This document shows, in pieces, positions 17,381 through 54,567 of a DNA stretch of 64,000 nt (its first letter is position 1; every line of letters begins with the position of its first letter). The stretch comes from Octopus sinensis (Eukaryota). Location: contig NC_042997.1 in NCBI RefSeq assembly GCF_006345805.1, positions 208,382,001 through 208,446,000 of the forward strand. The letters are read 5' to 3'. A program made the position numbers and the translations under genes. The notes under the pieces are model-generated. The model was given only the letters and a program-made list of their open reading frames with translations, did no database searches and was not told the DNA's origin.

Positions 17381-17890
17381 ATAAATGAAAGAATGGAGTC
17401 GAACGACGATTTAACAAAATTCCTTTATTCTCGACATATGTTTCGAAGACTGCATATTCTTAATTCCGAAGGAATCCATCCACCCAATTTTGACGTCACT
17501 GCTTGTAACGGAATATTTTTAAGAAACACTCATTATTACTATGGACTCCGTGTGGGCAGTCATCTAAAAGTTTTTGTTCGTCATGATGCTGACATAAGTT
17601 CCTTGTCTTTCCTGATGAGAAGACGGCATAATGCACCCTTTATTCCTTCGGAATTAAGAATATGCAGTCTTCGAAACATGTGTCGAGAATAAAGGAATTT
17701 TGTTAAATCGTCGTTCGACTCCATTCTTTCATTTATCTATAGTAAAAAAACACACAAATTTCCACACGAAAGCACGTGATTTCTGCCCTTGGCATGTAGC
17801 TTCAACCGTGCTTTCTGACGTAAATTTGCTACCCGGGTATCGGTTAACCGAATTATCCATACTAGGATAATTCATTCAACTACTTAAACA
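17381..17890 (+). mobile_element. PLE-type non-coding element with ~95-bp inverted arms, inserted in (TA)n
   Basis: 17381-17475 is the reverse complement of ~17642-17736; contains an HHR; (TA)n on both sides. Confidence 0.7.
17599..17697 (+). ncRNA. Type I hammerhead ribozyme motif
   Basis: CTGATGA 17612-18; stem II GAAGAC/GTCTTC; GAAA-CATGTG-TC (inverted arm has palindromic CATATG); stem I ttcctt..tttc / gaga..aaggaa. Confidence 0.75.
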
Positions 17891-17950
17891 TATATATATA
17901 TATATATAATATATATATATAATATATATATATATATATATATATATATA

Positions 17951-19000
17951 AGGTATGTAGAAAAATACAACATGGACAAGAACGTATAACTCTTAGAAGA
18001 CGACACAATAAACACGGACAGACACTCGAAACCTCAGTCTTCAGTCAAGAACCGGATCATCGTAGTAATTTCGGCTGATTAATCTTGAGATTACTAGATC
18101 ACGGCCAGCCCTCCAAGAAAAACTAAGCAACGAGCATTAGAAAAACTAAGCTGGAAGCGTAGATTTCCTGGAAGAAGGATCGAATGCATACGAACACCAG
18201 GACAGCAAAAGGGACAGATATAAAAAAAACAAAAAACAATAATGGAATACAGAAACATGAATACAGAAGCATTAACGGTGAAAACAACAAGTGTCTTACG
18301 ACTGATAACAAGCAAACAAATTTTTTCTCTGGCGCATTGGAAGAAGCCTTTATAGCGGCGGACGAAAAACAACGATGTTAACACGACGAGGGTCAGGAGC
18401 TGAAAGGCAGATTTCGGCCAACAGTCACGTGACAGAGAAGAGGGAAAAGAAAAGAAGAGAAGCAAAGGAAGAGAGAGAGAGAGGAGGGACAAACGCAACA
18501 AAGAGAGAGAAGAGAGAGAAAGAAGGAATCAGAGAGGAGAAGGGATGGGTGTCGAAGAATGACCTGTGAGTGCAGAGCGAGACAAAGAAATAGGAGGGTA
18601 GTGGAAGACTAGACCAAGAATCAGAGGAAAGAGAAGGGAAAAAGAGGATGAGTAGAGAGAAAAGAGAGAGAGGGGGACAGATCAAGTAAAAATGAGAGAG
18701 AGAGAGACAAACAGAGAGTCGTACCAATTATTAAGAATATGTGCTCACATTAATGATAAGGGGGTACGGGGCGCCTGGAATATATGTTAAGGTATGTAGA
18801 AAAATACAACATGGACAAGAACGTATAACTCTTAGAAGACGACACAATAAACACGGACAGACACTCGAAACCCTCAGTCTTCAGTCAAGAACCGGATCAT
18901 CGTAGTAATTTCGGCTGATTAATCTTGAGATTACTAGATCACGGCCAGCCCTCCAAGAAAAACTAAGCAACGAGCATTAGAAAAACTAAGCTGAAGCGTA
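17951..19000. mobile_element. Non-coding element with ~210-bp near-identical terminal direct repeats (period 839 bp), inside (TA)n
   Basis: 17951-18161 matches 18790-19000; relatives at 37675-37990, 40073-40260 (inverted) and 46490-46615. Confidence 0.75.
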
Positions 19001-19159
19001 TATATATATATAATATATTATATTATATATATATATATATACATATATATACATATATGCACACACACACACACACACACACACACACACACTCACACAC
19101 ACATATATATATATTATTTGCAGGATCCAATCGAATCTGGGTATTTTAATAATTCTTTC

Positions 19160-19522
19160 TTCTATATGCACAAGACCTGAAATTTGGTTGAGGGGGATAA
19201 TCAATTACATTGACCCCAGTATTCAACTGATACTTATTTTATCGACCCCGAACGGATCAAAGGCAAAGTCGATCTGGGAAGAATTGAAACTCAGAACGTA
19301 AAGACGGACGAAATTCCGCTAAGCAATTTAACTGGCGTGCTAACGATTCTTCCAGCTCGTCACCTTTGAGGTATTTTTATAACCCTTTCTGCAAAAGGCA
19401 CAGGGCCTGAAATTTGGGGGAGAGGACTAGTCGAATACATCGACCTCCAGGACGCAACTGGTACTTAATTTATCGATCCCCGAAAGGATGAAAGGCAAAG
19501 TCGACCTCGGCGGAATTTGAAT
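19160..19522 (-). mobile_element. Two tandem Meta-SINE-type copies (family B)
   Basis: ttatcga(t)cccc gaa..gaaaggcaaagtcga motif occurs twice. Confidence 0.8.
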
Positions 19523-19908
19523 TCCCAGGGATTTTAATAATGACACCAAGATAGAGTCAAGGACAGCTCCCTCGTGTATCAACAGGGTGTAGGGAAACTC
19601 CCGTTGTTACTGAAGCATATACGGATCTGTCCTTCCGGTTTTGCATACATTCACCAGAAACGTTCAACGTAAAATCACACAAGAATATACTTCGGCATGC
19701 AGTCCATGTTCCACAGTAGGCTCAAGAGCCAACACACGGAAGGTCCCAGGTGAGGTGTAGTATAAGTTACAACACAGGTGGGCTGAGGTTTACTACGGCT
19801 TTTTCAGGCATGTTCTTTCTTGACGAACAAATCAATGACATCATTCTAAAGAAAAAGTTTTCTCCAGGTGAATTAAAATTTTGTATAAAATTTGACATTT
19901 AGGACTTT

Positions 19909-20322
19909 AAAGTGATAGCATGTTGTCAACTTAATGTGACAGTCCCATAAAAGGGAAGAATGCTACTGTTATTTAGCCCTAGGAGACACTGTTTCCTGTT
20001 GGACTTGACTCATTTTCTGTGTCCTTATGTTCAGACAGGGGGAGATAAGCACCTCCACCCAGCAAAGCCAGTAACCAGAGACTAGTTTCAGAGTCATTGC
20101 TCTTCATCAGTCTGGAGTAGCATGGCTTGCCAGATGTCGATGCCTATCCGCTTTTGAAAACATATTTCAAGTGAAATACATTCACTGATTTTTGAAAATA
20201 GAAATAATGTATTTTTAAATCTCATAAGGACACAGGAGATGGCGCTTCCTAGGGCTAAATAACAGTAACATTCTTCCGTTTTATGGGACTGTCACATTAA
20301 GTTGACAACATACTATCACTTT
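19909..20322. mobile_element. Element with ~90-bp inverted arms enclosing an HHR
   Basis: aaagtgatagcatgttgtcaacttaatgtgacagtccc... versus ...gggactgtcacattaagttgacaacatactatcacttt. Confidence 0.8.
20067..20126 (-). ncRNA. Minimal type I hammerhead ribozyme motif, canonical core
   Basis: Minus strand: CCAGA-CTGATGA-AGAG caatga CTCT-GAAA-CTAG-TC-TCTGG; palindromic ACTAGT helix III; GUC site. Confidence 0.85.
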
Positions 20323-52430: not shown

Positions 52431-53057
52431 TGTATGATGTATATATATATATATATATATATATATATATATATATATATATATATATATATGCATACAT
52501 ATATATTATATATATATAATATACATATACATACATATATATATATACATACATACATATATGTATGTGTGTGCGTGTATGTATGTTTGTATGTATGTAT
52601 GTATGTATGTATGTATGTTTGTATGTATGATAGCATATAAACATTGGGTCAAAAATTCCTTTTGAATAGAAAAATCGAAGGCTTTATAAATTCTTGTCAG
52701 CAACAACATAGAATTCTCGTAGATAAAGACTAGATAGAGGAAATAGACAGAGAAATTCGGGGGATAACTTTGGTCTAATGAAAGATCGCTTATCATGTGT
52801 ATATGAGATGTATGTTCGTGTCCCACGGATAGCCTTCGGCTTTTTCTATCCAAAGATTTCCCTCCGTAACTCAATACTTACATATCATATGTGACTTTAA
52901 GTACTCCGTGATCCACCGTTCCAAAGCAGAATTATTTCACGTTCTCTCGAACGACCATAAATTATTACGACATCAGTAATATACATACATATATATATAC
53001 GTGTGTGTGTGTGTGTGTGTGTGTGTTGGTGTGTGTGTGTGTGTGGTGGGGGAGTGT

Positions 53058-53374
53058 AGGTGCAGGTGTGGCTGTGTGGTAAGAAGTTTGCTTCCCAGCC
53101 ACATGGTTTCGGGTTCAGTCCCAGCGCGTAGGGCCGACCAAAACCTTGTGAGTGGATTTGGTAGACGGAAACTGAAAGGATCCCGTTGTGTATATATATG
53201 TATATATATTTATGTATGCGTGTCTTTGTACTTGTGTTTGCCCTACCCTAACCCCCACCCCCGCCCCTCACCACCGCCACTATCATCGCTTGACAACCGA
53301 TGTTGGTGTGTTTATGTCTCCGAAACTTAGCGGTTCGGCAACAGAACACAATAAAATAAGCACTAGCCTTACAA
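53058..53374 (+). mobile_element. SINE family A, cut off at its 3' end by the 362-bp array
   Basis: Follows family A to aataagcactagccttacaa, then switches to the array. Confidence 0.85.
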
Positions 53375-53628
53375 GGATACAGTTTGTGTATCAAATAGCT
53401 AACTTAAGGCGATGGCCTCATGGAGCTAATAAGCGGACAGCTTTATTCTTATTTTTATAAGAATGCCATATTAGTATGGCGATAACTAATATTTTCCGGG
53501 AACGCTGCCGTTGTTCTCTTTTAGAGAGACTTAGTAATTTTAATATTTCTATTATTGAAAACAAGTGGATGTATTCCACCGAAGCTAGGTAAATAAAACC
53601 TTTGAGCAGAGATTGTCAGAAGCGACAC

Positions 53629-53700
53629 CTACTGGTCTGGCTACGCTGCATTGAAAAGGGGCAATACCCCGAAACGCGTCTGTAGCTGCCGGCCAAGTAG
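53629..53700 (+). ncRNA. Type I hammerhead ribozyme motif, U3-A8 core variant
   Basis: GCTGCA-TTGAAAA-GGGG caata CCCC-GAAA-CGCG-TC-TGTAGC; extended stem I ctac/gtag, tgg/cca, ctggc/gccgg. Confidence 0.8.
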
Positions 53701-53989
53701 TGTGGAGCGACTGACCTCCCTTGTTCAAAGGGTATATGGATACAGTTTGTGTATCAAATAGCTAACTTAAGGCGATGGCCTCATGGAGCTAATAAGCGGA
53801 CAGCTTTATTCTTATTTTTATAAGAATGCCATATTAGTATGGCGATAACTAATATTTTCCGGGAACGCTGCCGTTGTTCTCTTTTAGAGAGACTTAGTAA
53901 TTTTAATATTTCTATTATTGAAAACAAGTGGATGTATTCCACCGAAGCTAGGTAAATAAAACCTTGAGCAGAGATTGTCAAAGCGACAC

Positions 53990-54061
53990 CTACTGGTCTG
54001 GCTACGCTGCATTGAAAAGGGGCATTACCCCGAAACGCGTCTGTAGCTGCCGGCCAAGTAG
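53990..54061 (+). ncRNA. Second copy of the U3-A8 hammerhead motif
   Basis: Same as the first except the stem II loop (catta). Confidence 0.8.
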
Positions 54062-54567
54062 TGTGGAGCGACTGACCTCCCTTGTTCAAAGGTTATATGG
54101 ATACAGTTTGTGTATCAAATAGCTAACTTAAGGCGATGGCCTCATGGAGGTAATAAGCGGACAGCTTTATTCTTATTTTATAAGAATGCCATATTAGTAT
54201 GGCGATAACTAATATTTTTCGGGAACGCTGCCGTTGTTCTCTTTTAGAGAGACTTAGTAATTTTAATATTTCTATTATATATATATATATATATATATAC
54301 TAATACAGATAAGTAGAAATTTTACCGGTGGGTGTGTTAAATTATAAGGTGCTAAAAGAGAATGACTCTCCCCAGACACAACAGTTTAACAGTAGTTTAA
54401 CATTAAACCGAAAAATTATTCAATACTGTTTAACTTTTTTACTTCGAAGTCACTGTTGCCGGTGGCGAGGAGATCTCTGTTGACGAATGTATCTTCATTT
54501 AAGACAAGAGAGAATGATTTGAAGGCGATCAGATTGCACGATATCATAAAAGCTCCATCAGGAATAA

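Follow-up and report, generated by a model that had tools for sequence, protein, structure and literature searches.

Hammerhead ribozymes at an octopus locus: ends of Penelope-like elements and retrozyme-type repeats with helix III palindromes that likely pair ribozyme copies

A 64,000-nucleotide stretch of the Octopus sinensis genome (contig NC_042997.1, positions 208,382,001 to 208,446,000; hereafter the window) is rich in hammerhead ribozyme (HHR) motifs, which raises the question of what elements carry them, which enzymes moved them, and whether the short palindromes in their helix III act as a code by which each family recognizes itself. An initial annotation had proposed such a code, in a system of unrelated non-autonomous elements mobilized by the enzymes of a Penelope-like element (PLE). 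We put the probability of a different explanation at about 0.8: the window holds independent insertions from at least eight hammerhead-bearing retroelement families, including PLE ends and retrozymes likely copied by PLE enzymes, in which the palindrome serves only for dimer pairing and drifts by compensated change, while specificity between families arises incidentally from helices I, II and III together. The self-cutting motifs belong to an already described mix of broken PLE ends and small protein-free repeats.

We searched for HHRs with a type I descriptor in which a palindrome was no requirement, using 30 local dinucleotide shuffles as the null. The window contains 12 matches (17612, 20110(-), 41378, 45285(-), six at 50215-52193(-), 53651 and 54012) against 0-1 per shuffle, a density above the shuffled background, and the six motifs (17599, 20067, 41372, 47591, 50149, 53629) and two half-motifs (21472, 36722) of the initial annotation were all recovered at or near these coordinates. 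The matches have the type I core CUGANGA (or its U3-A8 variant, as at 53651), GAAA and UH with helices I and II, while the type I 5' half is missing from the window copies of families G and H. The motif at 47606 misses the strict descriptor because its stem II has only 3 bp; its fold is retained across 30 family copies. At gathering score, Rfam gave no hammerhead-model match for the window motifs, two focused E-value scans of families B and F returned no hammerhead model, and in a whole-window E-value scan the 150 matches listed were microsatellite-driven miRNA matches. A census of 1.0 Mb of sequence gave 28 hits per Mb, against 1-3 in shuffles, and a strict palindrome (with relaxed stems) at 9 of 18 census loci, against 3 of 85 shuffled hits. 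The window is richer than this sample (5 loci where 1.15 were expected, P=0.007), which is explained here only as the choice of a TA-rich stretch. Every motif belongs to a multi-copy family whose palindrome is conserved among its best-scoring copies, as the initial annotation required; taking the best-scoring 12-30 of 256-3974 candidates inflates this conservation, and a minority of copies linked to ORFs may have been missed.

The literature already describes a palindromic helix III, action as dimers, targeting of (TA)n and retrozymes borne by PLEs. Type I hammerheads with palindromic helix III were described in the pLTRs of metazoan PLEs by Cervera and de la Pena (2014, PMC4209133), and the window motifs resemble those in the portions of that paper used here in having a short palindrome as helix III, a predicted need to dimerize, numerous divergent families in one genome, solo copies left by truncated PLEs, pairs on opposite strands and the U3-A8 core variant; they differ in palindromes of up to 6-7 nt and an often long loop II (40-70 nt). 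A literature search for octopus hammerheads returned nothing on point; supplements, outside its scope, may list the same families.

Judged by their sequence context, the motifs at 17599 and 41372 are the 3' ends of protein-coding, autonomous Hydra-type PLEs, so that two of the six families depart from the proposal that all are non-autonomous. Family A (17384..17890, +; core at 17612, helix III CAT(A/G)TG, predicted cut after 17684) is represented by the 5'-truncated pLTR (3' end) of an autonomous PLE of Hydra-like type; a short stretch at 17384-17475 is an inverted copy, and (TA)n lies at both ends. Family C (41060..41612, +; core at 41378 with CGATCG as helix III and a cut predicted after 41456) is represented by the 5'-truncated 3' pLTR of an autonomous Hydra-clade PLE, lying in (TA)n. 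Both families sit directly 3' of RT plus GIY-YIG ORFs bearing Hydra motifs, and one C copy (L222) retains a complete pLTR-ORF-pLTR tandem with the HHR in the pLTR. The clade names Hydra and Neptune/Nematis rest on motif comparison rather than on an RT tree. Translations of family C (L228, L229) contain RWK, DKT, a CxCX5C linker, CxxC and CxH around E and N, plus a GIY-YIG domain at the C terminus (match E=0.0022, below the curated cut-off) with no CCHH, all of which, with the HHR and (TA)n, agree with the Hydra clade as characterized in the relevant parts of Craig et al. (2021, PMC8557442); at ~4.5 kb with long Asn-rich inserts, however, family C exceeds the length of under 3 kb generally given there. 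Family A likewise has CxxC and CxH, no CCHH, RT upstream of EN and a (TA)n target, but no CxCX5C linker was found before GIY-YIG in L217, L218, L219 or L221, and it is therefore filed as Hydra-like only. RWK and DKT were not found in four of its copies, each truncated or broken at those positions.

The remaining four complete families are non-coding tandem repeats that were likely copied by Penelope enzymes. Their units of 345-490 bp each contain one type I HHR and have a fixed 3' end with variable 5' truncation; inverted tail-less copies also occur in B, D and F. The ~345-bp unit of family B (19909..20376, -; core at 20110(-), helix III CTAG) is present as an inverted and a tailed copy with a 12-bp target duplication, outside (TA)n. 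Family D (47246..47900, +; core at 47606) is an old rearranged copy of a ~486-bp unit with weak stem II and a helix III, TCCAGGA, that has a central mismatch. Families B and D occur mostly as single units, with some tandems. Family E (49982..52431, -) forms an array of 6.2 x 397 bp with six HHRs (helix III CTGCAG), and family F (53376..54277, +) a young array of 2.5 x 363 bp with HHRs at 53651 and 54012 (U3-A8 core, helix III CGCG); both arrays have their 3' end in (TA)n. Families B (20067) and F (53629), described initially as unrelated, are colinear and homologous (z=17.8), B being a distant F relative. A further candidate relative of this pair, C1up-84634 (CCGG), was not supported.

These four families resemble the metazoan non-LTR retrozymes of Cervera and de la Pena (2020, PMC7229834) and of Li, Clavereau and Pollet (2026, bioRxiv 10.64898/2026.07.22.740005) in their non-coding tandem units of this size, single type I HHR, low GC and proposed PLE mobilization, as far as the consulted parts of these sources describe them. 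They differ in that the PLE insertion footprint is visible here (fixed 3' end, tail, inversion, family-specific target) and in that no parent pLTR was identified. A search for expression listed no RNA record holding them, and F-like contigs in four runs of uncertain type were uninformative on strand, ends and circles. The proposed link of each family to an autonomous PLE holds for A and C and found no counterpart in B, D, E and F: shared terminal sequence among ten family representatives gave no helper for them, the only match being that between B and F. Likewise, 41 regions downstream of endonuclease hits (<80% identical to the three queries, some still copies of A, C or the RT family) yielded no helper except one F chimera and neighboring insertions. 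One insertion, L351, lies between two (TA)n tracts and has the end of a Hydra ORF joined to an array of family F.

Penelope-type mobilization is supported by the fixed 3' ends, variable 5' truncation, inverted copies and tails. Within the window (TA)n flanks five of eight copies (17599, 41372, 50149, 53629 and 36722) and is absent at 20067, 47591 and 21472, in line with the initial statement that most segments are so flanked. Motif distance to (TA)n in the window is a weak test, since a tract is found no more than 350 bp away from 42% of random positions, and it was dropped in favor of junction counts across copies. Among best-scoring copies, true 3' ends fall at (TA)n in 24 of 28 for A, 29 of 29 for C, 19 of 25 for D, 13 of 13 for E and 10 of 10 for F, compared with 4% at random positions, which bears out the proposed (TA)n enrichment and targeting for these families and not for B, where none of 17 tailed ends does so. 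There are therefore at least two targeting modes, probably reflecting two helper enzymes.

The neighboring RT is a real PLE fragment, at 26113..27520 (-), 5'-truncated, frameshifted and broken, ending at a 100-N assembly gap (26009-26108), and it belongs to a different clade. Its family resembles the Neptune/Nematis-type PLEs covered in the consulted parts of PMC8557442 in its DKG motif, CX4CxxC linker, CCHH-type cysteines and histidines in a C-terminal GIY-YIG domain and full copies ending at (TA)n; unlike them, its pLTR has only an atypical hammerhead-like motif (GCAA instead of GAAA). Its terminal repeat matched none of the window hammerhead families, and the link that the initial annotation drew to it was not borne out. 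The two half-motifs, at 21472 and 36722, lie in inverted copies, truncated at the 5' end, of families G (21340..21615, -; old, 3' half of the HHR only, CATATG) and H (36706..37056, +; CAATTG, (TA)n at both ends), other copies of which often have the full core. Proposed linkage of H to ORFs at L206, L211 and L215 was not accepted, the frame match being weak or the orientation opposite. A further hammerhead, at 45285(-) with helix III CGG-N-CCG, had been overlooked; it lies in family I (45041..46490, -), a ~1.45-kb repeat with Helitron-like ends, and a literature search for Helitron-borne hammerheads, supplements being outside its scope, found nothing on point.

Could all eight families instead consist of autonomous-PLE pLTRs, either solo or amplified in tandem, with arrays that grew as DNA was duplicated locally and with no RNA life cycle proper to non-autonomous elements? 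This holds for A and C, and the upstream sequence common to copies of G and H is long and 3' UTR-like. In frogs, known elements, almost all of them PLEs, are matched by 24 of 57 retrozyme families, and local amplification is proposed in the sections consulted (bioRxiv 10.64898/2026.07.22.740005). For B, D, E and F, however, tblastn of top-scoring loci with 1.5-kb flanks found an in-line ORF just once, at an F locus, and F was rejected as the pLTR of the Hydra family at L004 since 0 of 39 other ORF copies run on into F; moreover, E and F arrays are dispersed over many chromosomes with a single common 3' end, and the 5' parts of F arrays are often inverted, as would fit multimers inserted in one step. 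We consider this extension to all families improbable. Less probable still is that the motifs match by chance or are dead relics without ribozyme function, given the excess over shuffled sequence in the census and the covariation among B, F and its sister F2, which extends from the core (C3-G8 to U3-A8) to all three helices. The lack of an Rfam match would suit relics, as would the atypical A-A mismatch at the stem II base of D and E, the failure of 8 of 9 frog retrozyme dimers to cleave in vitro (bioRxiv 10.64898/2026.07.22.740005) and the weak cleavage by minimal PLE hammerheads (PMC4209133), the last two as given in parts of those sources.

The self-recognition code turns on the palindromes themselves. 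As a monomer hairpin helix III is predicted at +1.3 to +6.0 kcal/mol, and as a homodimer duplex at -4.6 to -11.3 kcal/mol; it is thus modeled as unstable within one copy and stable between two, and the palindromes likely let two copies pair. A selected code would go further, with dimers formed in trans and families or sister subfamilies switching palindrome against cross-activation. Conservation within families would fit it, and homodimer helix III duplexes are predicted to be far more stable than most heterodimers. Of 17 heterologous pairs whose stem I is compatible, 14 have a mismatched helix III, so that the palindromes do contribute to discrimination; F (CGCG) and F2 (CATG) keep stem I cross-compatibility (5-6 bp) yet lose helix III pairing (predicted heteroduplex -0.8, homoduplexes -7.5 and -4.6 kcal/mol). 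Yet helix III is compatible in 42 of 552 ordered heterologous pairs (14 by Watson-Crick pairs alone), with no depletion among those with compatible stem I (3/17 versus 39/535 others, a comparison confounded by kinship). A family password is unlikely because palindromes are reused, contrary to the claim that each family has its own: CATATG is common to A (17599), G (21472) and two related census families, CAATTG to H and two other families, and CGATCG is kept by C and a sister family though stem I differs. By its geometry a dimer also demands cross-pairing in helix I or II, and the tandem layout provides a partner in cis. Compensated changes distinguish homologues in B, F and F2 (CTAG, CGCG, CATG), and two CpG transitions also turn CGCG into CATG. 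Cross-family recognition is not discussed in the portions of PMC4209133 used here, and a literature search for a cross-family code or trans cleavage, supplements outside its scope, found nothing on point. We regard the code as decidedly improbable. Equally doubtful is the joint proposal that sister retrozymes with cross-compatible stem I (F CGCG, F2 CATG, B CTAG) compete for one Hydra-clade RT and isolate themselves by palindrome swap, L351 being a template switch that names the helper.

Under the preferred reading of PLE ends and PLE-copied retrozymes, two families (A, C) would be truncated ends of coding PLEs and four (B, D, E, F) non-coding tandem repeats, and the sole predicted role of the palindrome is the pairing of two ribozyme copies. 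Transcripts that contain two pLTRs or a series of units would form a double hammerhead in cis, helix III being too weak to hold as a hairpin, and would thereby release unit-length RNA. Such RNA may circularize and, going by the literature, would undergo reverse transcription where an endonuclease has made a nick. Since the DNA runs 156-236 nt past the predicted cut site to its 3' end, the template was probably a circle or an uncut multimer. This is in line with the published model, as presented in parts of PMC4209133, PMC7229834, PMC8557442 and bioRxiv 10.64898/2026.07.22.740005. Against it stand several minimum-energy folds of monomers (clearly those of C, D and E), in which no hammerhead appears, the excess of motifs in the window over the 1.0-Mb census, and the failure of shared terminal sequence to yield a helper for B, D, E or F.

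The locus illustrates a known system in compact form, and its shared ends, tails, inversions and target bias add genomic support for the insertion of animal retrozymes by Penelope-type enzymes. Families F (copies 98-99% identical) and C (97-98%) are young and suit tests of enzyme-retrozyme pairing, an open question in the papers cited here, for which the join of ORF and F array at L351 is the remaining lead. If palindrome swaps did isolate sister subfamilies, they would constitute an RNA-level compatibility code among selfish elements; the data favor drift of the palindromes over such an isolating code.

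The hammerhead ribozyme (HHR) motifs in the window are real and lie well above chance. All eight motifs reported in the initial annotation, six HHRs and two half-motifs, were found in the sequence, and a ninth, absent from that list, lies at 45285(-). We scanned for type I hammerheads with a descriptor that leaves the palindrome free: core CUGANGA or UUGANAA, a minimum of 4 bp in stem I and in stem II, GAAA, 0-10 nt, UH. It matched 12 times in the window versus 0 or 1 per shuffle (30 shuffles) and 28 times in a 1.0-Mb sample from nine chromosomes versus 1-3 in five shuffles, bearing out the expected excess over shuffled sequence. 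An Rfam search of the window detected none of the hammerheads. A strict palindrome occurs in 9 of 18 merged loci of the 1.0-Mb sample versus 3 of 85 shuffled matches under relaxed stems, and one allowing G-U in 14 of 18 versus 8 of 85. Merging by a 2-kb rule, which makes families E and F one locus, leaves 5 loci versus 1.15 expected (P=0.007) in a window itself picked for such density. The host genome (2.72 Gb) is AT microsatellite-rich, with (TA)6-or-longer tracts numbering 100 in the window and 33-154 per 64 kb across ten 100-kb samples.

Every motif is a member of a multi-copy family, here A (17599), B (20067), C (41372), D (47591), E (array at 50149), F (array at 53629), G (21472), H (36722) and I (45285(-)). 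The initial searches listed candidates, a figure not to be read as copy number: 3684 for A, 2749 for B, 1587 for C, 3974 for D, 735 for E, 1033 for F, 818 for G, 256 for H and 439 for I; family comparisons use the best 12-30 loci per family and six for I. Helix III palindromes are conserved among distinct copies within families: CATATG in 18/29 (CATGTG in 6/29) for A, CTAG in 25/30 for B, CGATCG in 12/13 for C, TCCAGGA in 21/30 for D, CTGCAG in 20/22 for E, CGCG in 9/10 for F, CATATG in 13/19 for G and CAATTG in 9/14 for H. The half-motifs of G and H in the window are truncated and inverted copies, and the whole core is frequent in other members.

All of these families had been proposed to be non-autonomous, which fails for A and C. 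Within each of these two families, copies have more than 1.5 kb upstream in common, coding for a reverse transcriptase (RT) and then a C-terminal GIY-YIG endonuclease (EN), and their window copies are therefore ordinary 5'-truncated insertions of Penelope-like elements (PLEs). One family C locus (L222) is a complete element of ~4.5 kb, with terminal repeats (pLTRs) on both sides of the ORF. The family C protein carries RWK, DKT, a CxCX5C linker and CxxC and CxH motifs with no CCHH, the combination by which PMC8557442 characterises the Hydra clade; family A has the same endonuclease type without the CxCX5C linker. Long Asn-rich inserts separate RT from EN in both. B (~345 bp), D (~486 bp), E (397 bp) and F (363 bp) are single or tandem non-coding units, and tblastn of their best-scoring loci gave one in-line ORF only, a Hydra ORF at the F locus L004. 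G and H share longer upstream sequence among copies, where no ORF was detected.

Nor are the families all unrelated, as had been claimed: with the 7-nt core taken out, local alignment (120 pairs scored) identifies B and F as colinear homologues at z=17.8. Across B, F and its sister family F2, the core covaries from C3-G8 to U3-A8, and helix III covaries as well (CTAG, CGCG and CATG). The proposed association with (TA)n stands for the true 3' ends of A (24/28), C (29/29), D (19/25), E (13/13, one being the window's own copy) and F (10/10) against a background of 4%, unit-to-unit junctions (D 7, E 16, F 3) being left out; it fails for B (0/17, with 11 internal-class rows, none TA, left out), whose insertion in the window duplicated 12 bp of target. 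Since the homologues B and F differ in target, a change of helper enzyme is suggested. The two (19909-20376 and 53376-54277) have 3' junction sequence in common at their different targets. Hydra-like A (L217-L221) reaches (TA)n at 24 of 28 ends despite the absence of the cysteine linker, for which a role in guiding (TA)n targeting has been proposed. In A, C, E and F, the element's DNA extends 156-236 nt beyond the predicted cut site before reaching its 3' end, so integration does not begin at the ribozyme-made end; the template would likely be a circle or an uncut multimer.

A candidate helper appears at L351:4482-7767, in a single insertion with (TA)n on either side that consists, in order, of the inverted pLTR of a C-related Hydra family, the ORF of that family and 2.3 F units with a tail. 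The ORF stops just short of its stop codon, and the Hydra 3' UTR is not resumed after the F units. This single locus may record a template switch between F and Hydra RNAs, which would name the helper; alternatively, F may have inserted into an older Hydra copy and removed about 1.1 kb of it. None of 39 other copies of this ORF runs on into F. The PLE RT that had been placed beside the motifs is present at 26113-27520(-) as a truncated, frameshifted fragment ending at an assembly gap. Going by motifs (DKG, a CX4CxxC linker, an endonuclease of CCHH type), the fragment's family would be of Neptune/Nematis type. The supposed link to the HHR families was not supported: its pLTR has no sequence in common with them beyond simple repeats, and as far as can be tested the proximity is coincidence. 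Within that pLTR, ~95 nt from the 3' end of the element, lies a hammerhead-like motif that has U3-A8, a GCGC palindrome and, where GAAA would be expected, GCAA. The motif is identical in all 7 copies where the region was found, of 14 fetched (L164, L166, L167, L173, L174, L176 and L177), and would be either a variant of the core or a relic that is no longer active.

The palindromes had further been proposed as a family-specific code by which only ribozymes of the same family dimerise and cleave. The two copies in a double hammerhead would each supply one strand of helix III, one copy the strand that follows GAAA and its partner the strand that precedes UH. It follows by reasoning from the topology in PMC4209133 that helix I or helix II would also form between copies, so a heterodimer would need two compatible helices. 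Predicted helix III energies are +1.3 to +6.0 kcal/mol as a hairpin and -4.6 to -11.3 kcal/mol between copies, and the tandem layout would meet the need for a second copy in cis. Among 24 representatives, of which many are individual copies, helix III pairing is possible in 42 of 552 ordered heterologous pairs (14 by Watson-Crick alone), of which 7 have at least 4 pairs in helix I or II. Stem I reaches at least 4 contiguous pairs in 17 of 552, and 3 have both stem I and helix III.

A code would account for the 14 of 17 stem-I-compatible pairs that the palindromes bar, and for F and F2, which keep stem I and lose helix III pairing (predicted -0.8 versus -7.5 and -4.6 kcal/mol), although the change from CGCG to CATG amounts to two CpG transitions. 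The proposal is nevertheless mostly contradicted. Palindromes are reused, CATATG in A and G as well as in two census families that are related to each other, and CAATTG in H and two others, so it is not the case that each family has its own; CGATCG is common to C and a sister family whose stem I is different; and pairs with compatible stem I are no less often compatible in helix III than the rest (3/17 versus 39/535). A literature search at the level of listings turned up no report of a cross-family code.

Other repeats lie close by. Family I is a ~1.45-kb repeat (45041-46490(-)) with an intact-looking hammerhead at 45285 and ends (5' TC; 3' GC-rich hairpin and CTAG) that we take to be Helitron-like. 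Its 3' end is common to 6 of 6 fetched copies, and none of 40 matches has a PLE-type tandem or inverted pattern; a DNA transposon may have captured the hammerhead. A 3.2-kb minisatellite (27750-30950; 21-, 52- and 73-bp units) has long stop-free frames and two core-like matches that do not pass the hammerhead descriptor. A near-perfect inverted repeat of ~550 bp with mariner-like ends (21620-22170) adjoins family G, and there is a fragment of a mariner-like ORF at 39463-39870(-). Elsewhere on the contig (G000:C1, about 208502600-208506600; L242-L243), nine hammerhead copies of ~482 bp form an array whose two halves face in opposite directions; the helix III palindrome there is 9 nt long.

Much of this has precedent. 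PMC4209133 describes helix III palindromes, action as dimers, the presence of many families in one genome and the U3-A8 core; non-LTR retrozymes are defined, with PLEs named as likely helpers, in PMC7229834; and PMC8557442 sets out the characters of the Hydra clade along with HHRs and the targeting of (TA)n. Retrozymes are argued to be non-autonomous PLE derivatives in bioRxiv 10.64898/2026.07.22.740005, where 1 of 9 retrozyme dimers cleaves. The octopus motifs are a new host example of these already known kinds.
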